In this document: positions 4,534 to 49,492 of the stretch, one piece after another | Layout of the letters: every line of letters begins with the position of its first letter | Numbering within the stretch: the first letter of the stretch is position 1 | Source of the DNA: a virus | Taxonomy: Duplodnaviria > Caudoviricetes | Direction: 5' to 3' (one strand) | Length of the DNA stretch: 64,000 bases | IMG/VR virus record: IMGVR_UViG_3300010149_000008 | Notes under the pieces: model-generated | Seen by the model: only the letters and a program-made list of their open reading frames with translations | Told to the model about the DNA's origin: nothing | Database searches by the model: none | Program-made: the position numbers and the translations under genes

Positions 4534-4758
4534 CTAGTCAACATACTCCCATTTAGCTGCTTCAAATCCAAAGTTTTCAAATAAATAGCTTTCGATTTCA
4601 TCTTCATCTTCATCAAAAAGCTCTATTGATAAAGTCTTAGGCAAGCCAGCATTTACTCTAGCTTCTTCGTATTGCAAGTAATCAAACTCTGTGTCTTTAA
4701 AACACCAAGTAACTTTAATTGTATTTGTTTCTGTATTACTTTCTTGAGACATTTTCAA
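4534..4758 (-). CDS. Hypothetical acidic protein, similar to N-terminus of 32748..33722
   Basis: IKVTW...GLPKTLSI...EIESYLFENFG...W vs IQIIW...GIPIVVDL...QITDALSDEHG...W. Confidence 0.65.
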   Translation of the reverse strand: MKMSQESNTETNTIKVTWCFKDTEFDYLQYEEARVNAGLPKTLSIELFDEDEDEIESYLFENFGFEAAKWEYVD

Positions 4759-4785
4759 ACCTTTCTGTTTTTTGTCTATATATGT

Positions 4786-5010
4786 CTATGATTTTTGTTT
4801 TTTTGCTTTTTTGTCTATTTCGAATTGAATAAACCATAAAGCCTTACTCAAATCTTCTTCTGTTTTTTCTTTGTTTTTTTTGCCTGCTCGAGCAATATAT
4901 TTTATAGCACTTCCTAACTCAAAATTTAAAGACCATGCATTTATAACATCAATTACTTCGTGACCAGTATCTTTTAAATAATGTGTAGGATGATCCACGT
5001 TTTCTTTCAT
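4786..5010 (-). CDS. DUF3310-like phage protein
   Basis: VDHPTHY...EVIDVI...FELGSAIKYIARAGKK...EDLSKALWF. Confidence 0.85.
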   Translation of the reverse strand: MKENVDHPTHYLKDTGHEVIDVINAWSLNFELGSAIKYIARAGKKNKEKTEEDLSKALWFIQFEIDKKAKKQKS

Positions 5011-5728: not shown

Positions 5729-5911
5729 TTAATTTTTTCCAGAAATTAAATTTTCTGCATATTCTTTGTTGCATTTCATACATAGATTATCGCAATTATT
5801 ACAACCGTAATACTCATGAAAAGCATATTTGCATTCATGAAAATAAAAGTCATATTCCTTTTTACACTTATCACACTTAAGATTGTTTTTCATTTTTCTT
5901 AACACTTTCAA
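5729..5911 (-). CDS. Small Cys-rich (Zn-finger-like) protein
   Basis: CxxC, CxxC, CxxC motifs. Confidence 0.55.
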   Translation of the reverse strand: MKVLRKMKNNLKCDKCKKEYDFYFHECKYAFHEYYGCNNCDNLCMKCNKEYAENLISGKN

Positions 5912-6068
5912 TTATGTTTTCTTCTAAATCTAAAATTTGAACTTCATCAATGTAAGTTACTATTTCATAGTCGTTGTTTTTAGTTCTAAACAAAGAAGTT
6001 ATTTGAATGTCTAGGTCTAAGACTAGTTGTGCAAATTTTTTTAACTTTAAACTTTCTTTTTCAATCAT
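5877..6068 (-). CDS. Hypothetical protein
   Basis: Overlapping operon packing. Confidence 0.5.
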   Translation of the reverse strand: MIEKESLKLKKFAQLVLDLDIQITSLFRTKNNDYEIVTYIDEVQILDLEENIIESVKKNEKQS

Positions 6069-6331
6069 CTTTTATTTCTCAATAGCTCTCTAACTTCTTT
6101 TTGTGTCTGTGACATTTTGCCAACCATTCTTGCACCCGGCTTTTCTATTACATTTGATACTTGGCCAGATCTTAAACCACCATTAACTAAACAATAAAAA
6201 TCAAAATAATCTATCTTAGTCTCTTCATCTCTCCATAGATTTACAACCTCACCAAATCCATAGTTTTGATCTGCCCCTTTTAGTGAAACCCATAACATAT
6301 CGCCTAGTTTAATTTCAGTAGTTTTCGACAT
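6065..6331 (-). CDS. Hypothetical protein (SH3-like)
   Basis: IKLGDMLWV...GFGEVV; 4-nt overlap with next gene. Confidence 0.55.
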   Translation of the reverse strand: MSKTTEIKLGDMLWVSLKGADQNYGFGEVVNLWRDEETKIDYFDFYCLVNGGLRSGQVSNVIEKPGARMVGKMSQTQKEVRELLRNKR

Positions 6332-6647
6332 AAGGCAAATGATTTTCTGGTTTTGAAAAATATTTATGCAAGTGATATTCGTTTACAATACAAGCTTGAT
6401 TTGTCTTAAGTCTTGTCAAGCTAATCCTGACCATCCTTGTCGCACCTTTAGTTTCTAGTACTTCGCTTCCTAGATAAACAAAAGGTTCGTTTAACTTAAT
6501 AGGTAACTTTTGCCCGTCTAATCTTAGCTCTCTTTTTGCCGGCATAAAATAATTACCTTTGTTCCTAAGATAAACAAAGGATCCAGAGCCTGATTTGCTA
6601 TTAAAAATAATAATGTCGCCTTTTCTTATTTCAACGTATTTAACCAT
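6315..6647 (-). CDS. Hypothetical protein
   Basis: AAGGAG RBS and own promoter at 6667-6696. Confidence 0.65.
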   Translation of the reverse strand: MVKYVEIRKGDIIIFNSKSGSGSFVYLRNKGNYFMPAKRELRLDGQKLPIKLNEPFVYLGSEVLETKGATRMVRISLTRLKTNQACIVNEYHLHKYFSKPENHLPYVENY

Positions 6648-6666
6648 TATTGTCTCCTTTTTATAT

Positions 6667-6696
6667 ATTATAACAAAAATTTTTACTATTTACACG
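6667..6696 (-). promoter_or_regulatory. Early-type promoter CGTGTAA-N17-TATAAT
   Basis: One of at least 36 copies. Confidence 0.75.
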
Positions 6697-7615
6697 TATT
6701 AACTAACTCATTCGTTGCCCAATCAACATTTCTATATTTATTTGAAAAATATACACCGTATCCTGAACTGTTAGGTTGCTGGATTTTCTTATCCAATACT
6801 TCCTCTTTTGCAAAACCGATAAACATAGTAAGTAAATTATCTGGCAGCCTAACAGTCTTATGCAGCCTTTTAACATTTACTTTAAAGATTTCTTCTTTGA
6901 TGTTGTAATGGCTTGGCCAGTTGTTTTCAACAGCTTTGTAAAGGCATTCTAAAAATATGCTTTGTGTTTTTTTGTCTTCTGATATATTTTCTAAATTTCT
7001 ATACTTTAAATATTTTATTATCCTTGCTATTGTAAAAGGAGAGTCTGAAGAGCTTAGTTTAAGTATTTTTTTTGCATCACACTCTAATGCTTCTTCTTCA
7101 TAATAAACTATGTAATCATTTTTTTCTTTTAAAATTCCATACTTACAGTTTAATACGTCAAAAGAGTTAAAACATTCTTCGATATTTTTGAAGAAAAATT
7201 TATTTACCAACTGTACTTTTATATCTTTTATTTCTGAAATGTTATCATCGAAATAGTCAAAATTTAATGCAAAGTCGCTAGTGTAACAATTTAATTTTGG
7301 ATGTTCAAAAACGTTATCATAGTGACTTAAATTTTTCATATGTCCTGATATTTTTTTATATGCAAGATCATATTCGTTTTTTGAGTTGCAAAATAAGTCT
7401 ATGTCCCCTGAGCTGTAATATTCTGATAGGTAATTTATAATTCTATTAGTCTTTTTATTATTGCTATTTATATCAAAATGTGCATGACAAACTTCTCTTG
7501 CAAAACCTCCAGCTATCCAAAAGTTTGAGTCAAATGCTATTTCAATAACTGGGTTTCTAAATATATTATTTAACTGTTCTTTGTGTATACCTTCGACAAT
7601 AAAAGACTTGATCAT
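6686..7615 (-). CDS. Nucleotidyltransferase (pol-beta superfamily, CCA/poly(A)-polymerase head-like)
   Basis: WIAGGFAR...GDIDLF metal-binding motif, KVQLV, FNSFDVLNCK. Confidence 0.7.
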   Translation of the reverse strand: MIKSFIVEGIHKEQLNNIFRNPVIEIAFDSNFWIAGGFAREVCHAHFDINSNNKKTNRIINYLSEYYSSGDIDLFCNSKNEYDLAYKKISGHMKNLSHYDNVFEHPKLNCYTSDFALNFDYFDDNISEIKDIKVQLVNKFFFKNIEECFNSFDVLNCKYGILKEKNDYIVYYEEEALECDAKKILKLSSSDSPFTIARIIKYLKYRNLENISEDKKTQSIFLECLYKAVENNWPSHYNIKEEIFKVNVKRLHKTVRLPDNLLTMFIGFAKEEVLDKKIQQPNSSGYGVYFSNKYRNVDWATNELVNTCK

Positions 7616-7664
7616 TTTTTCTCCAGAAAAGTGTTAGAAAGAAAAGAGTTTTACTATGAAAAGT

Positions 7665-8213
7665 TTAATAAGTATACTCAAGCAATCCTTCAAGCTTTAG
7701 AAATTTCTCCCATTCTTTAAGCTCGAGCTCAGTACAGCTTGAAAGCTTAGCCTCTTTTATTATCTCATTTGTTTGTCTAACAATTTCTTCAGCTTCTCCA
7801 TTATTAATTGTACTGTTTTTTGTTTTTCTTCTTTTAGGCAAAGGCTTTTCTTGCTTTTTCTTTCTATCTTCTGGATTGATTTCTAACTGCATCTTTACTG
7901 GTGTATTTCCAAGCAAAGGTAAATCCTTGACTTGATTATCATTTATAATTAATACACAGTCTGGGTGATCAATTTTTGAACCTCTTTTCCTTACTTCGAA
8001 AATAACTTGAGGATTATCTTCGCTTCCTGTAGGTTTTGAAAATCTTATCCAGGCAAAACCTTCTCTTTCAACATGCCTTACATACTCAATACCATCAGGA
8101 GAATTTGCAATTGTCATTACTTTATTATACACATTAGAATCATTAGGTACCTTTACCCAACAATTACCTCTGCCTTTATATCGATCTCTTATTGTATTTT
8201 TAAAATTTGACAT
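7665..8213 (-). CDS. Hypothetical protein, GRG/AWIR paralogue family copy 2
   Basis: YKGRGNCW, GFAWIRF, FEVRKRGSKIDHP, LGNTPVKMQLE. Confidence 0.75.
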   Translation of the reverse strand: MSNFKNTIRDRYKGRGNCWVKVPNDSNVYNKVMTIANSPDGIEYVRHVEREGFAWIRFSKPTGSEDNPQVIFEVRKRGSKIDHPDCVLIINDNQVKDLPLLGNTPVKMQLEINPEDRKKKQEKPLPKRRKTKNSTINNGEAEEIVRQTNEIIKEAKLSSCTELELKEWEKFLKLEGLLEYTY

Positions 8214-8288
8214 ATTAAAGTTACCTTTTTAAGTTTTGTTGATGTTGTTTTGTATATTATAAATTAAAGTTTATCTAATATACACGCA

Positions 8289-8546
8289 TTAAGAAATTAA
8301 CTTTGATTTTCCTTGCCCAGGACCTACTGTTTGACCAGTCTGTGCAGCAGGTGTTCCTGCTGTTGCAACAGGAATTCCGGGAAGAACGTCTATTAAAATA
8401 TCTGCAGATGTTACAAACTCGTGTATTGCTTTAGCAACTGCATCACATCTTTGCTTTACTTTAGCTTTAGCTTCGCTTGTCATTTCAGTATCTTTTGTTT
8501 CTGCTTCAAAGAGTTCACTTGACAATTTTTCTTTTTTTAAAGCCAT
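8289..8546 (-). CDS. Hypothetical small protein (possibly virion-associated)
   Basis: C-terminal IPVATAGTPAAQTGQTVGPG motif; the function is a guess. Confidence 0.55.
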   Translation of the reverse strand: MALKKEKLSSELFEAETKDTEMTSEAKAKVKQRCDAVAKAIHEFVTSADILIDVLPGIPVATAGTPAAQTGQTVGPGQGKSKLIS

Positions 8547-8549
8547 TAT

Positions 8550-8831
8550 CTATTCCGTTTCTATAATATTGTAGCTGAAAATGATGAAGCTTTCTTTTGT
8601 ATTAGTATCTTTTACTTCAAGCATAACATCACAATCTGTAGTTACTGTGACTTCTTCAACTATTCCAGTTTTAACGTTTTCTTTAATTACATCATCAACG
8701 ACTACAGGCACATTAAATTTTATTTGTTTGTTTAGCAAGTAAGACTTTGAAATTTTATTGACATCTAAATAGTACAGTTCATGTTTACTTTTTATTTCTT
8801 TTAACAGATTTTCTAATAAGTCTTTGTTCAT
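8550..8831 (-). CDS. Hypothetical protein
   Basis: Operon packing. Confidence 0.55.
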   Translation of the reverse strand: MNKDLLENLLKEIKSKHELYYLDVNKISKSYLLNKQIKFNVPVVVDDVIKENVKTGIVEEVTVTTDCDVMLEVKDTNTKESFIIFSYNIIETE

Positions 8832-8834
8832 TTT

Positions 8835-9080
8835 TTATTTACCTTTTTTAAATAAGTTTTCAATAACTACTAAAAACTTTAGCATTGTTATTTCAACGTA
8901 AATTAAAGTTTTTAATACTAAAGAAGGATTGTTTGAAACTACATACATTTTTTGAAATTGTTTGTTTTGTTTTTTTGTTGGTTTACCTGAAACGATCCAT
9001 GATAGTTCTCCTTCTTCACTAACAATAGCTAACATAATGCTACCAGATAAAATTTGTTTTTCTAAGTTTTCATCTAACAA
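8835..9080 (-). CDS. Hypothetical protein
   Basis: Operon packing, TTG start. Confidence 0.5.
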   Translation of the reverse strand: MLDENLEKQILSGSIMLAIVSEEGELSWIVSGKPTKKQNKQFQKMYVVSNNPSLVLKTLIYVEITMLKFLVVIENLFKKGK

Positions 9081-9145
9081 TTTATTTCCTCATATTTATT
9101 ATTATATTATTTATATGAAAATTTACAACACAGAAACGAAATAAA

Positions 9146-9985
9146 ATGAAATTTATAGTATTTTTTTTGAGTTTATTATTATTAGCTTTTGACATTCCAA
9201 TTGAAAAGATAAAGTCTTCTTACGGTCATATAGAAGCTTATTATAAAGTTCAACCGAAACAAAGTTTGGATTGTGAAAATTGCTTTACATCGATGGAGGC
9301 TTTTCAAGAGATAAGATCAATAAACAAAAAGCTAATGCAAATGGCGTATGTCAAAGCTTCTTCTTTTATAGTTAAAAAGAAAAAATCAGAAACTATTTCT
9401 ATTACTTCTGAACATGTTTGCAAAGAATTAAGCGTCTTTTTAAGAGATCAAAAGTTCAAAGCTTTAGCAAAAGATTTGATGAAGACAATGGCAAAAACAT
9501 ATGCAGACAGTGCTTTATATTCAGAGATATACAGAACTTATGAAATCGTTCCAAAAGCTTATATATATTCTTTTGAAGGAGTAAAGCATGAAATAACATC
9601 GATAATACTCTCAGACAGTAAAATTGATACATGTGCAATTAAATCTTTAGGCGTCTGGGGAAAAGAAGTAACTTTTGCAAAGAGTGGTTGTTTATATGAA
9701 AAAATATTTAATATGTCTAGCTCAGGGGGATATTATCATAAAGGATCAGTAGCTCTAAGAGAAGGATATGTTAACGGAAGAGTTGAAGAGTTAAGAATAC
9801 AAGAAAGAAAGTTTAAAGAAGTAAATCTGTATACTTTGCTAGTTAAACCAGGCGCATCAGGATCTGCTGTATTCAATGTTAAAGGAGAAGTATGTGGATC
9901 AGTTAATATATCTTTTATAAAAGTTGATTTAAGTGCTGGTGCTTCTTATTCTGATCTAACTCAATTTTATAAACAATTGCGTTAA
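9146..9985 (+). CDS. Secreted trypsin-like (S1) serine protease
   Basis: Signal peptide; ITSEHVC (His), KIDTCAI (Asp), PGASGSAV (Ser). Confidence 0.8.
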   Translation: MKFIVFFLSLLLLAFDIPIEKIKSSYGHIEAYYKVQPKQSLDCENCFTSMEAFQEIRSINKKLMQMAYVKASSFIVKKKKSETISITSEHVCKELSVFLRDQKFKALAKDLMKTMAKTYADSALYSEIYRTYEIVPKAYIYSFEGVKHEITSIILSDSKIDTCAIKSLGVWGKEVTFAKSGCLYEKIFNMSSSGGYYHKGSVALREGYVNGRVEELRIQERKFKEVNLYTLLVKPGASGSAVFNVKGEVCGSVNISFIKVDLSAGASYSDLTQFYKQLR

Positions 9986-42973: not shown

Positions 42974-43783
42974 TTACCAGATGACTGCTATTCCAGTTTT
43001 AAAAATAATATCTGATTTTTTTATTTTTACTGCAGGTTCTGAGTCATGTAAATAAGCAAACGATGTATTTATTCCAAGCTTAAACAATTTTGATTTTAGT
43101 ATAGATGATCTTAGATTGACTTCGTTATTAACTCTATAGTCTTTATAATTTAACAATAACGGTTGATAATAAGATGTAATAGAGATAAAACTGCTGTTAT
43201 CATTTACAAAGCTTTTTATTATTGTCATGTATGAAGTAATTCTAGCATTCATTGTAGTTTCATAAGAAATTTGTTCATAATCTGACATTATACCTGTACC
43301 AAATGCAAATTTAAAAATTTTTGTTTTTGTAATTACTTTTTCAATTCTTATTCCAACGCCATTTAACTGACGCAAACTTAAGTCTTTAAACTCATCATAT
43401 TGAGTTTGAGTAAATATTTCATACCCTATGAAATTGTGAAGCATAATAGTATATCTAAAGTGAGAAAAAGCATTGTTTCTGTACAATATTTTGTCTTGAT
43501 ATCCTTTGCTAACTGAACTTTTTAATAAAATATGATGTTTATTATATTTATAGTGAAGATCTTTTTTTAATTCATAAGCCTGCGAATTAACGTTTCCTTT
43601 TTGTAGTTGAATTCCACAGTTTAAAGATCCATAAAAACCTTCTTTCTTTGCTTCTTCTCTAAAGCTTTCTATATTTACTTGAGAAAAAGAATTGTTTAAA
43701 TTAAACAAACAAACAAACATAATTGCTAAAAATTTTGTTTTCAAATTATTGTCTCCTTTAACTAAAAAGTATTTTATAAGCAT
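42974..43783 (-). CDS. Outer-membrane beta-barrel protein, DUF481-like
   Basis: Signal peptide then QVNIESFR, KGNV, HFRY, FTQTQYDEFKDLSLRQLNGVGIR, YYQP, DYRV; aromatic C-terminus (W). Confidence 0.72.
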   Translation of the reverse strand: MLIKYFLVKGDNNLKTKFLAIMFVCLFNLNNSFSQVNIESFREEAKKEGFYGSLNCGIQLQKGNVNSQAYELKKDLHYKYNKHHILLKSSVSKGYQDKILYRNNAFSHFRYTIMLHNFIGYEIFTQTQYDEFKDLSLRQLNGVGIRIEKVITKTKIFKFAFGTGIMSDYEQISYETTMNARITSYMTIIKSFVNDNSSFISITSYYQPLLLNYKDYRVNNEVNLRSSILKSKLFKLGINTSFAYLHDSEPAVKIKKSDIIFKTGIAVIW

Positions 43784-45203
43784 TTTTTAAAGAGTACACA
43801 TTTTCTTTTAAACTATTTTTTGCTCTTTCGTAAGCTTGATTTAGCAATGTTGTATTTTTTTCTGCTCTTCTATTTGAAGATTGTTGTTTATGATAGTCGG
43901 GAGATCTGTCTTTAATTTCTTCATACATGTTTTTTAAAGCTTCAATTTCTTTTTGACTATCATCGCTTTTAATTGATTCTATATACTCTTCAACAAAACC
44001 ATTAAAACTAGGGAATTCTTTTTCTAAAAAATACATTCCTACGTTATAAGACATGTCAATAACTACATCTTGTACTTCATCGTCCATTTTAAACAAATAA
44101 CCGTCTGATAGACCTTTATGATAATCTATTGAATTACTAATATATCCTTCCAAGCACCTTTCAGCAAGTTTTAATGATATTAATCCTCTAGACTCAGCTA
44201 CTTCTTTTTCTAAGTCTAATTCTGACTTTTGATCTTCTAAAGAAGCTTTTCTTTTATCTAGTCTTTTAATTTCTGTCTCAACTGTTTCAGTATAATTTTT
44301 TCTTTTCTTTGCATCTCTTATCTTTTTCCATTTTTTCAGTTCAGCATTCTTTAACTTAATTTTACTTTCAACTTTAGAAATTATTTTATCAAGATTTGCT
44401 TTTTTACTTTCAATAGACTTGCTGAATTTAGCTAATAATTCTTTTTGACTTTCTTGTTCATACTGACTTTTTTCTTCTTCAGATATACCACATTTTGCGT
44501 ACAAATCATCAATCCATGCTTCAGGCAAACTATCAGGGCCTATATTGTCAGCAAAAAAAGTGCCGTATCCTATTGAAACACCAGTTCTATCTTTGTAAGG
44601 GTACGGCTTGAATCCTTCAAATACTTTTATTCTACTTTTAGCTCTTTCTAATAACTTTGTTTTGTTACTTGAAGCAACAGGAACAGACTTTTCTTTTGGC
44701 TTGACTTTAGCTTTCAATGTTGTATTGATATCTTTATTGTCGTCTACTACTATATTTGCTGATGTGTTATATTGAGCTAGAGGTTGTTTCACAATTTGAT
44801 TGCTTGTTTTTTCTATTACTTCTTGTACTTCAACATTATTATCATTAGCAATTTTCTGTAAAGCTTTAAGCTCTTCGGCTGAATTGTCTCCTCCAAAAAA
44901 AATTGCAGCTGCAATCGCTGATATTTTTAAGCCTTTTTTAAGACCTTTTAGTAGTTTATTCATTTTAGGTTTTATTATTGAAGCTTTTTCTAAGTCAACT
45001 TTATTTACTATTGTTTCTGGTTGATCTGTTATTATTGGATTATCAACAACAGTATCATTAAAGTCTAGCGCGCTAATGTCTAACGCAGTGTGCTCTCCTG
45101 CCTGATTCTGTTTAAAACTTTCGTTCAATCTTATACTAGATATTTCTTTAAAAAAATGCTTAAGTAAATAATGATTCTGTTTATTTTCAGCAATTATAAT
45201 CAT
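43758..45203 (-). CDS. Large virion-type protein with T4-like (GH24) lysozyme domain
   Basis: IKVFEGFKPYPYKDRTGVSIGYG (E-x8-D), VIDMSYNVG, S.YHKQ...RA; coiled-coil insert; RLNES leader. Confidence 0.72.
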   Translation of the reverse strand: MIIIAENKQNHYLLKHFFKEISSIRLNESFKQNQAGEHTALDISALDFNDTVVDNPIITDQPETIVNKVDLEKASIIKPKMNKLLKGLKKGLKISAIAAAIFFGGDNSAEELKALQKIANDNNVEVQEVIEKTSNQIVKQPLAQYNTSANIVVDDNKDINTTLKAKVKPKEKSVPVASSNKTKLLERAKSRIKVFEGFKPYPYKDRTGVSIGYGTFFADNIGPDSLPEAWIDDLYAKCGISEEEKSQYEQESQKELLAKFSKSIESKKANLDKIISKVESKIKLKNAELKKWKKIRDAKKRKNYTETVETEIKRLDKRKASLEDQKSELDLEKEVAESRGLISLKLAERCLEGYISNSIDYHKGLSDGYLFKMDDEVQDVVIDMSYNVGMYFLEKEFPSFNGFVEEYIESIKSDDSQKEIEALKNMYEEIKDRSPDYHKQQSSNRRAEKNTTLLNQAYERAKNSLKENVYSLKNAYKILFS

Positions 45204-45279: not shown

Positions 45280-45573
45280 ATGAAAAGTGATGATTTATAT
45301 ATCATACAATCAGACGTAACAGGAATGATTAAAGTTGGTAGGTCAAAAAACCCTGACAAACGTTTAAAGCAGCTACAAACTGGCAATCCAAACAAGCTTA
45401 GACTTATTGCTTTTTTTAAAGGCGAAGGGTGGAAAGAAAAACTAATTCATGAAGAACTTAAACGTTGGAGAAAAGAAGGTGAGTGGTTTAGCTATGATTG
45501 TGTAGGTAGTATACCCGTAAGTCTTTATGAAAAAATTGATTTTGGTTCATTTGATGATTGGTGGGATAAGTAG
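45280..45573 (+). CDS. GIY-YIG nuclease, T5orf172/MUG113-like
   Basis: LYII...IKVGRSKNPDKRLKQLQTGNP...EKLIH...EGEWF. Confidence 0.85.
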   Translation: MKSDDLYIIQSDVTGMIKVGRSKNPDKRLKQLQTGNPNKLRLIAFFKGEGWKEKLIHEELKRWRKEGEWFSYDCVGSIPVSLYEKIDFGSFDDWWDK

Positions 45574-47277: not shown

Positions 47278-47763
47278 TTAATTATTGTCTATTTTAGGCA
47301 TCCATTCGTCTACTTCTGGATGTAGAACAACTTGATCTTGTCTTTTTGTTTTTATTGGTTTTTCACCGCTGAAAAGTGAAAGCTTATCTATAACAGCTGT
47401 TTGCAACTCAAATATTTGTTCTCTTGCAAGCTGAAGTTGTATTTGAGAGTCTCTTAGCCTACCTATTAAAGCTGCTCGGTCAGCATTTGCAGATGAAAGT
47501 TTGTCTTTAAGCTCTTCAACCTCAGATGGATCTCTTCCTGCAGCTATTGAAAGCATTGAAGATATAGCACCTGTAATCATACCAATCATTCCTACTATTA
47601 TGTCTCGATTGTCTTTCTGGAGAGGAGTAAATGCTAGAAACATTATTAAGCTTATAACAAGAACCATGAAAATAACAGAAAACCACCAACCTCTTTTTGC
47701 TTTTTCTGTCTGCGTAAACTGTTTATTTGATTTTTCTTCTTTTTCATTAATATTTTTTTTCAT
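47278..47763 (-). CDS. 2-TM membrane protein with C-terminal coiled coil
   Basis: Two hydrophobic segments followed by EELKDKLSSAN...LQLAREQIFELQ. Confidence 0.7.
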   Translation of the reverse strand: MKKNINEKEEKSNKQFTQTEKAKRGWWFSVIFMVLVISLIMFLAFTPLQKDNRDIIVGMIGMITGAISSMLSIAAGRDPSEVEELKDKLSSANADRAALIGRLRDSQIQLQLAREQIFELQTAVIDKLSLFSGEKPIKTKRQDQVVLHPEVDEWMPKIDNN

Positions 47764-47782
47764 TTTTTATAGTCCTTTATTT

Positions 47783-48667
47783 TTATAGCACTTCGTTTAA
47801 AACGTTTTGTATAAATTTAATAGCAGGATGTAGCCATCCTAAAAAATACTTAAAGTCTATACCGGTAATGTCAAATATCAGACGGTTTAAACTATCTTTC
47901 ATAGATATATAAAAGACAAAGTAAACTATTATTAAAGCCTCAAAAAAAGCTATTCTGTAAACTAACCACCAAAATATTTCAGACATTTTTTTATGTTTTA
48001 ATCTAGTTTTTATTTTTTTATGTCCACCTATTCTTTTTGCTTTTTCGCTATCTTTAGGCGGCTGCAATTGCATTTCTATTAGGCCGATTGCATATAAAGA
48101 TTCAGGATCACGCACACCTTTAAACTTGTACAATCCTACTAAAGCAATTAACGCATTATCAGGTATATACCTGTTTCTATGCCCGAGTTCTTTGTACGTC
48201 TTATATGCTGAAGCGGAAAGCAGTATTTGCTCAGCAGCACATAAAGACATTGTTCTTGCAGCAATATTTTTACCTATGCCTTCAAGATTAATTCTTTTTC
48301 CGCCAGCTCTTACTATATGTTCTTCAGCTTTGACAATTAACATTTTATCCCAATGTATACCAACTCTACTTCTAAAAGGAAACTTTTTAATTCTTAAAAA
48401 TTTTTTATAATCAAAAGCAAAGGCTATAGCGTCTCCAACAGATCCAAAATACATTAAATGACCATCAGATGCGTCGACTAGACGACCGTTGTGTCTTTGT
48501 ATGAAATTCATGACTGCTTTGTCGTGTACACCAAACCATTGAGCTGCAATTCTAGAGCCATTTCTCTGCACAAATTTTGTACTACCTATTATATCTGTTA
48601 GAACAATTGCAATTTTAGCTTCTATAATATTTTCAGGAAGGCTGCTACTCATTTTTGTCACATACAC
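47783..48667 (-). CDS. Class III nucleotidyl (adenylate/guanylate-type) cyclase with C-terminal TM
   Basis: IVLTDIIGST, VDASDG, RVGIHW, EGIGKNIAARTMSL, EQILLS. Confidence 0.85.
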   Translation of the reverse strand: MYVTKMSSSLPENIIEAKIAIVLTDIIGSTKFVQRNGSRIAAQWFGVHDKAVMNFIQRHNGRLVDASDGHLMYFGSVGDAIAFAFDYKKFLRIKKFPFRSRVGIHWDKMLIVKAEEHIVRAGGKRINLEGIGKNIAARTMSLCAAEQILLSASAYKTYKELGHRNRYIPDNALIALVGLYKFKGVRDPESLYAIGLIEMQLQPPKDSEKAKRIGGHKKIKTRLKHKKMSEIFWWLVYRIAFFEALIIVYFVFYISMKDSLNRLIFDITGIDFKYFLGWLHPAIKFIQNVLNEVL

Positions 48668-48878
48668 AATCTATCTCTAAACAGACAGTACATAAACATT
48701 CAGGCCAAATACAGTTAATAGCTTCAATGTTGCAATGACAGTTTAACTTTTCACATTCACATAAACTATCTTTTTTTTCGCATAATGGACAAAAGCCTTG
48801 AGGTGGCATTTTTTTAGTTAGATCTCTAACAGTATTTTTATTATTATCTTTTATTTTTAATTTTCTAACTAATAACAT
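48645..48878 (-). CDS. Cys-rich metallothionein-like mini-protein
   Basis: 12 Cys in the last ~48 residues. Confidence 0.55.
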   Translation of the reverse strand: MLLVRKLKIKDNNKNTVRDLTKKMPPQGFCPLCEKKDSLCECEKLNCHCNIEAINCIWPECLCTVCLEIDCVCDKNE

Positions 48879-48893
48879 AATATTAACCTGTGA

Positions 48894-49151
48894 CTAACTT
48901 TTTTTCTTAGGCTTCTTACTTAAGAAAAGATGACTTCTAGGTATTTTATTAGGAGGTCCTGAATGGTTTAAAATATTACTAATGTCTTCAATTGATCTTA
49001 TTTTGTCTTTTTCAGATGAAATTTCTTTGGTTTTTAAGTTTTTTCTTTTTATTGTATGTTCATCTTCTATAGACTTCAATAAGTCAGAAAAGCTCTGACT
49101 TTGATTTGCAAAAGAAGATTCGAGAAATATTTTTATATACTTTTTAAGCAT
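48894..49151 (-). CDS. Hypothetical protein with IFLES-type leader
   Basis: GGAG RBS; MLKKYIKIFLES. Confidence 0.6.
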   Translation of the reverse strand: MLKKYIKIFLESSFANQSQSFSDLLKSIEDEHTIKRKNLKTKEISSEKDKIRSIEDISNILNHSGPPNKIPRSHLFLSKKPKKKS

Positions 49152-49216: not shown

Positions 49217-49492
49217 ATGTTACTAGATAAAACACCTATGAAAAGTAAAAAATTTATTGCATATATGACTTCTGAACTTGGATGGAAGTGCGTTATTTTT
49301 TATTTGCTATTTCATTTACAAGGAAAATTAGACCATTATTCTTTAGCTATACTTATGACAGTTGTTATTACAAGTGGCTTTATTCAAATAGGATATATAC
49401 TAGGACAAGCAGCTTTAGACAAATATGTAAATGCTGCTGTAGAAATATTAGACAATGATAAAAAAAGGATAGACAGTGAAACAAAAAAATAA
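49217..49492 (+). CDS. Small 2-TM protein (holin-like)
   Basis: MKSKKFIAY start, two TM segments, charged C-terminus. Confidence 0.55.
   Translation: MLLDKTPMKSKKFIAYMTSELGWKCVIFYLLFHLQGKLDHYSLAILMTVVITSGFIQIGYILGQAALDKYVNAAVEILDNDKKRIDSETKK

Follow-up and report, generated by a model that had tools for sequence, protein, structure and literature searches.

A stretch of 64,000 nucleotides (nt) of the IMG/VR virus record IMGVR_UViG_3300010149_000008 (Duplodnaviria; Caudoviricetes), referred to here as the window, carries three co-oriented open reading frames (ORFs) on its minus strand between positions 47278 and 48878. The middle ORF encodes a class III nucleotidyl cyclase with a predicted C-terminal transmembrane (TM) helix, and the ORF downstream of it encodes a small coiled-coil protein with two predicted TM helices, hereafter called the partner. 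A sequence-only reading made before this analysis had described three tightly packed genes, and all three ORFs were found, on the minus strand, at the expected positions. The module and its parts are as follows:

47278-47763, minus strand: partner, 2-TM coiled-coil protein, 161 amino acids
Partner residues ~26-46: predicted TM helix 1
Partner residues ~54-76: predicted TM helix 2, separated from the first by an 8-residue loop
Partner residues ~80-130: highly conserved helix (ADR-ALI-RLRD-QIQ), predicted to be cytoplasmic
47783-48667, minus strand: class III nucleotidyl cyclase, predicted to be tail-anchored, 294 amino acids as listed from a GTG codon
48068-48628, minus strand: cyclase catalytic domain, residues ~14-200
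Cyclase residues 203-212: conserved juxtamembrane motif PP-x3-EKAKR
47903-47977, minus strand: predicted cyclase TM helix, residues ~231-255
48645-48878, minus strand: Cys-rich protein, 77 amino acids, accessory

The true start of the cyclase is most likely the ATG at 48652 (Met6 of the listed GTG ORF), which would give a protein of 289 amino acids; this codon is preferred because relatives begin there (P0001, for instance, has 289 amino acids). The ATG and the stop codon of the Cys-rich gene share an 8-nt overlap (ATGAGTAG), and the 19-nt spacer between the cyclase and partner genes contains an AAGGA ribosome-binding site. Between 46900 and 49600, promoter-like matches were fewer than in shuffled sequence (7 versus 14.2) and no minus-strand terminator was found, so the operon boundaries are drawn from gene spacing only. 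Of the three-gene operon proposed earlier, the cyclase and the partner stand as a two-gene core. The Cys-rich gene was found in 23 of 80 loci with the cyclase and counts as an accessory. In addition, the extent then given to the module leaves outside it a further conserved 2-TM gene at 49217-49492.

Identification of the middle gene as a class III cyclase, also made in the sequence-only reading, is borne out by its predicted structure. An AlphaFold model built from an alignment of 42 sequences reached a predicted local distance difference test (pLDDT) score of 94 and displays the beta-alpha-beta-beta-alpha-beta core of this fold, and Foldseek matched it to class III cyclase domains with an E-value of 1e-13 and a target TM-score of 0.91. 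The compact catalytic fold is shared with the mycobacterial class IIIc domains Rv1900c (LipJ CHD, 1YBT/1YBU; Z 23.1, root-mean-square deviation (rmsd) 1.9 A over 171 residues of 1YBT) and Ma1120 (4WP9/5D0E; Z 23.0), and superposition on these two, which covered 156-171 residues and thus almost all of the solved domain, gave an rmsd of 1.5-2.0 A. The same structures were retrieved from the PDB sequences with the single protein (Rv1900c, 6e-7; Ma1120, 5e-6) and with a family profile (1e-19 and 1e-15, respectively), although the phage cyclase has only 24-28% identity to them and, unlike either, is predicted to be C-terminally tail-anchored and is tied to the gene of a 2-TM partner.

Alignment to solved cyclases places the metal-ligand aspartates at Asp25 (TDIIGS) and Asp68 (SDG), the transition-state pair at Asn134 and Arg138 (N-x3-R) and the triphosphate lysine at Lys183; the aspartates and the N-x3-R motif had already been recognized in the earlier reading. 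None of the residues D25, S29, T30, D68, N134, R138 and K183 varies among 174 phage copies, of which 147 belong to the clade of the window and 27 to a second phage clade. Judged from these positions, the cyclase keeps all residues needed for two-metal cyclisation of a nucleoside triphosphate (NTP) and is predicted to be active. The metal Asp pair, the Arg and an HD motif are common to the phage cyclase, Rv1900c and Ma1120, and Ma1120 itself has Ala at the canonical Asn position in the alignment, such positions being variable within class IIIc. The base pocket is atypical, as had been noticed before. Asp65 aligns with the adenine-selecting Lys of Ma1120, and Asn127 aligns with the selecting Asp of both Ma1120 ('DLFG') and Rv1900c, so that neither the Lys/Asp pair of adenylyl cyclases nor a Glu/Cys-type guanylyl pair is found. 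Position 127 is Asn in the window's phage clade and Glu in the second phage clade and in bacterial relatives. Because the pocket reads Asp65/Asn127 in place of Lys/Asp, the substrate NTP is not predictable. Beyond the canonical set, D65, K124, E129 and K133 are invariant residues specific to this family.

The best family match of the cyclase is NCBIfam TIGR04510, described as 'putative peptide modification system cyclase', which comprises bacterial proteins of about 830 amino acids with a cyclase domain and a TPR region from Burkholderiales, Myxococcota and others. The match (7e-35, 120.7 bits) spans cyclase residues 20-212, that is, the catalytic domain, and covers only positions 7-204 of 814 in the profile. 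Phage proteins score 120-165 bits against a full-length cut-off of 400 bits, which is set for the cyclase domain plus TPR region, and have only the first 200 residues in common with the family; they are not full-length members, in contrast to the bacterial proteins P0134, P0143, P0159 and P0161 (803-940 bits). The phage cyclase does carry the signature of the clade (an invariant Asp at the Lys position, K124, E129, K133 and AAR), and both groups have D-x-[ST]-D-G and GAK..E.EG..K..AAR.MS as well as, beyond the domain, a PP...KAKR-like segment. It was this clade to which the signature mentioned in the sequence-only reading, as that of a myxobacterial/xanthomonad subgroup, corresponds.

An exhaustive search yielded 1,511 relatives at E <= 0.001, only ten of which reached E <= 1e-30. 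Apart from the phage-like short forms, these relatives are bacterial and long, with TPR, STAND-NTPase or TM plus PEGA regions. In a scan of one genome per species (185,579 prokaryotic species), the best relatives had only 28-35% identity (Burkholderiales, Myxococcota, Acidobacteriota and Spirochaetales), and the scan showed no copy above 35% identity and no prophage or host copy. A FastTree tree of 198 domains, midpoint-rooted for drawing only, placed all 54 phage sequences within one set of 59 rows (support 99). They lay on one side of the tree together with some further short metagenomic forms, opposite the 129 long forms from bacteria, and TIGR04510 is the sister group of the phage cyclases in this tree. 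Phage forms lack the TPR region and always have Asn at position 134, whereas 97 of the 129 bacterial relatives have Pro; these bacterial proteins (P0134 to P0270) keep the metal Asp and Arg despite the Pro. No recurrent small partner was found in the gene neighbourhoods of the bacterial relatives. Based on these comparisons, we place the catalytic domain with the bacterial TIGR04510 clade of Burkholderiales and Myxococcota rather than with PycC, the cyclase of the Pycsar defence system.

The C-terminal TM segment reported earlier is also present in the model, as the predicted segment (~231-255) falls inside a confident helix at residues 228-256. Since Lys/Arg-rich residues 213-227 directly precede this hydrophobic helix, the positive-inside rule would place the catalytic domain in the cytoplasm. 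The sequence EKAKR occurs both in the cyclase (residues 208-212; 48030-48044) and in the partner (residues 20-24; 47692-47706), in each case before the first TM helix; the broader pattern [ST]-E-K-[AV]-K-R is conserved in both families, and a weaker form follows the catalytic domain of the bacterial relatives. EKAKR may be a docking or juxtamembrane element shared by the two proteins.

Linkage of the two genes was examined in IMG/VR from both sides. An alignment-based cyclase query detected 340 loci, 80 of which were kept for counts, whereas single-sequence scans with the relatives P0122 and P0125 returned zero loci. A partner homologue was found beside the cyclase in all 75 loci with enough flanking sequence, directly adjacent in 67 and within 4 kb in all, and the adjacent genes mostly overlap by 4 nt. 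The reciprocal scan with the 161-residue partner gave 273 loci, of which 80 were kept and 73 were not already in the cyclase set; a cyclase was present in 71 of these 73, and short flanks explain the two exceptions. The 161-residue 2-TM protein is an obligate partner of the cyclase, linked to it in every related or distant phage examined, and an unlinked 2-TM gene, which the sequence-only reading had named as grounds for abandoning its proposal, was not encountered. The flanking genes vary by clade and include a helicase and T5orf172 in the window's clade, portal in L037, ThyX in L033 and AlkB-like in L077; the gene order of the pair is inverted in L077. Within the window's clade, eight loci have the pair separated by insertions of 1.2-3.9 kb (seen, for example, in L005, L006, L008, L013, L015, L019 and L022, at about 5850-9800), and several of the inserted genes belong to a small repeated family of proteins of about 140-175 amino acids. 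The cyclase-partner junction thus seems to be a hotspot of gene insertion.

The partner is more conserved than the cyclase in 44 of 50 distinct pairs (mean identity to the window proteins, 67% versus 54%), and is still 60-90% identical between phages in which the cyclases are 40-45% identical. Sixteen diverse homologues have 45 invariant columns, many of them in the cytoplasmic helix, and both termini of the protein are predicted to lie in the cytoplasm. Its nearest Atlas clusters are all viral and have no Pfam family, and its profile matched nothing among the PDB sequences; as far as these comparisons extend, the partner is known only from viruses.

The module is also abundant (340 loci in IMG/VR, over 500 protein clusters), and it was seen in phage contigs only and not in bacterial genomes. 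It is restricted to phages and occurs in hundreds of related and unrelated marine phages. The window itself is AT-rich (about 29% GC) and contains five tRNA genes, a PhoH-like gene, a phage-type helicase, a NUDIX gene and tail-fibre genes; its earlier recognition as phage DNA is upheld by the tRNA, PhoH, helicase and tail-fibre genes. Judging by this gene set, by a 277,787-bp contig that carries an identical cyclase and by the helicase, which has a best identity of only about 33% to the closest cultured phages, the source is an uncultured marine jumbo (giant) phage. Consistently, tblastn searches with the cyclase and with the partner found zero matches in 50,697 GenBank phage records.

Taken together, these data suggest a phage-specific membrane cyclic-nucleotide signalling module with the cyclase and its 2-TM partner as its core, a reading for and against which we find the balance about even. 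During infection, a homodimeric cyclase, tail-anchored in the host inner membrane by its C-terminal TM helix, would produce a cyclic nucleotide on the inner side of that membrane. The partner would most likely either dock onto and dimerise two cyclase chains, and so regulate them, or be the direct target of the product. Because no canonical cyclic-nucleotide receptor was found in five phage genomes that carry the module, the signal would be received either by a protein of the host or by the membrane partners. In the lineage of the window, the 12-Cys mini-protein is an accessory that is translationally coupled to the cyclase and probably binds metal, and a second small 2-TM protein (91 amino acids) is transcribed divergently beside the module.

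Several observations weigh against this reading. Pfam PF00211 did not score the window cyclase at E <= 0.1, although the relatives P0122 and P0125 pass it (32.1 and 29.7 bits; cut-off 21.9). The Pro at the transition-state Asn in the bacterial sister group might mean that the chemistry of the clade is other than cyclisation. Profile searches of the partner found no recognisable nucleotide-binding domain, it is gene linkage alone that points to a physical complex of the two proteins, and no fused or longer cyclase-partner forms were found, which is weak evidence.

The best-surviving alternative, which we nonetheless consider unlikely, is a phage-borne Pycsar-like pair, in which the cyclase would sense a competing phage or late infection and its product would open a membrane-disrupting 2-TM effector, leading to superinfection exclusion or abortive infection. 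Pycsar consists of the PycC cyclase and a receptor in which a cyclic-nucleotide-binding (cNMP-binding) domain is fused to TM or TIR, and an N-terminal helix has been described as a hallmark of PycC (PMC11224242). A class III-type cyclase with a non-canonical base pocket beside a small membrane protein does resemble PycC and PycTM (PMC11224242), there is a weak PADLOC PycC match, PF18142 (SLATT_fungal) gave sub-threshold matches in 9 of 16 partner homologues (best E 3.3e-4), and NF033635 (SLATT) scored the partner at 14.7 bits against a cut-off of 35. However, the SLATT matches may only reflect TM composition, as AbrB membrane matches were equally frequent. PF00027, the cNMP-binding family, was found neither in the 16 partner homologues nor in five module-carrying phage genomes (four of them at least 95% complete), whereas 11 of 14 bacterial genomes searched as a control contained it. 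The cyclase model has no helix before its first strand at residue 14, so the N-terminal PycC helix is missing; no PycC structure appeared at E <= 0.01 in the family-profile search of the PDB. None was listed among the best 50 structural matches either, an absence that we count neither for nor against Pycsar. The best PADLOC PycC match reached 17.4 bits (E 5.5e-4), compared with 120.7 bits for TIGR04510. Besides, the pair is phage-encoded, not located in bacterial defence islands, and is a strongly conserved resident of phages of many genome sizes, unlike fast-evolving defence cargo.

Membership in Pycsar was rejected for the lack of a cNMP-binding domain in the partner and in the five genomes, the lack of the PycC N-terminal helix and the 17.4-bit hidden Markov model (HMM) score, and by these comparisons the pairing is not the known Pycsar defence system. 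The analogy with Pycsar drawn in the sequence-only reading does not hold as membership, since the domain is nearer to mycobacterial class IIIc and TIGR04510 than to PycC.

Quite unlikely, in our view, is a role of the pair in lysis timing, in which the partner and/or the 91-residue 2-TM protein would be a holin or antiholin whose firing is regulated by a membrane cyclase-like protein. Class II holins and T4-type small phage membrane proteins are small and have two TM helices and a charged cytoplasmic tail. The partner has such a layout (two TM helices, both ends predicted inside and a charged C-terminal tail), which is not specific to holins. Lysin genes also occur nearby in part of the loci: a GH24-like gene (43758-45203) lies a few genes away, in the window's clade only, and an SLT-type lysin lies 2 kb downstream in L031. 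However, distant phages hold the pair between unrelated genes with no lysin nearby, and the small SLT-type lysins of the jumbo genomes G001, G002 and G004 sit 50-180 kb from the module. The absence of a constant lysin neighbour and the remoteness of these lysins weaken the holin reading. Holins are usually poorly conserved, whereas the partner is strongly conserved, even more so than the cyclase, and obligately tied to an enzyme gene.

Very improbable is that the domain nucleotidylates or otherwise modifies a protein or peptide (with the 12-Cys protein as substrate) or is a catalytically silent scaffold, as suggested by the best family match, TIGR04510, and its name, by the translational coupling of a small Cys-rich ORF to the enzyme and by the extra invariants D65, K124, E129 and K133. 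Against it, 57 of 80 loci lack the Cys-rich gene, whose product therefore cannot be an essential substrate, and this product has no match among the NCBIfam peptide families. A search for TIGR04509 peptides in five genomes that contain bacterial relatives found none (weak evidence, as control genomes also gave zero). The phage clade also retains the transition-state Asn lost in the bacterial clade, which argues for ordinary cyclase chemistry.

Returning to a signalling module, cyclic-nucleotide signalling in phage-host conflict has so far been known on the bacterial side (Pycsar, CBASS and type III CRISPR), and phages have been known to degrade or sequester such signals. With this module, the signal would be made by the phage itself, and if the enzyme is active, its product, receptor and purpose would all be new. 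Neither a phage class III cyclase module nor phage-encoded class III cyclases turned up in full-text searches of the literature. What is found is an abundant, strongly conserved and phage-restricted module whose obligate membrane partner has no known fold family. A broader view is possible but doubtful as a whole: marine phages of many lineages would own a second-messenger system in which the membrane-anchored cyclase is gated by the dedicated 2-TM protein or signals through it, this protein being a new kind of receptor or regulator without a cNMP-binding fold. With the system, the phage would read or rewrite the state of the host envelope (for example, lysis timing or exclusion of other phages), and metal or redox state would be a further input, through the 12-Cys protein.

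The Cys-rich ORF is regarded as a real gene because its cysteines are kept (12 Cys positions in 19 of 20 homologues and 11 in all 20) in spite of a mean column identity of just 29%. Their order is C-x-L-C ... C-x-C ... C-x-C ... C-x-W-P ... C-x-C-x2-C ... C-x-C. The 77-residue protein lacks a signal peptide and, as judged from its sequence, probably binds metal in the cytoplasm. It had zero matches among Pfam, PHROG and NCBIfam families, its model was uninformative (pLDDT 52), and a word-index search found only two close homologues; its Atlas neighbours score at most 0.88 and have no family, with Zn-ribbon/rubredoxin clusters appearing only at 0.79. About 18 loci carry instead a lipobox protein of 68-84 amino acids with four or five Cys, four of which are conserved (C-E-x-A-x-x-H-I ... 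C-x-G-Y-R-P ... C ... T-P-C). Its genes, seen in L042, L046, L056, L059-L061, L064-L068, L071, L074 and L075 (at about 4750-5000) and in L020 (4710-4997), fill the slot of the window's 12-Cys gene, L020 having both. L031 has an 8-Cys ORF of 56 amino acids, and many loci have nothing upstream of the cyclase.

The genes around the module in the window are as follows:

49217-49492, plus strand: 2-TM protein, 91 amino acids, a frequent fourth component, divergent here
48894-49151, minus strand: ORF of 85 amino acids, first in the row of minus-strand genes, with a strong AAGGAG ribosome-binding site
45280-45573, plus strand (opposite to the module): T5orf172/MUG113 (GIY-YIG-like) gene
43758-45203: GH24-like gene
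42974-43783, minus strand: protein of 269 amino acids with a signal-peptide-like start, without a PHROG match

Homologues of the 91-residue protein occur within 0-2.7 kb of the pair in roughly half of the loci (L001-L032, L042, L046-L048, L059 and L065). The gene is co-oriented and upstream in L010, L014, L020 and L026-L030, and in L031 it lies directly downstream, overlapping the end of the partner gene. The protein is probably a third membrane component of the module. In the window, the 65-nt divergent gap before it holds back-to-back promoter-like hexamers. Membership of the 85-residue ORF in the module is doubtful, because zero homologues were found in 20 closely related loci. On the other side, most close relatives also have the T5orf172/MUG113 gene, located between the GH24-like gene and the module, and the 269-residue protein comes after the GH24-like gene in the window and in the relatives L002, L004 and L007-L009.

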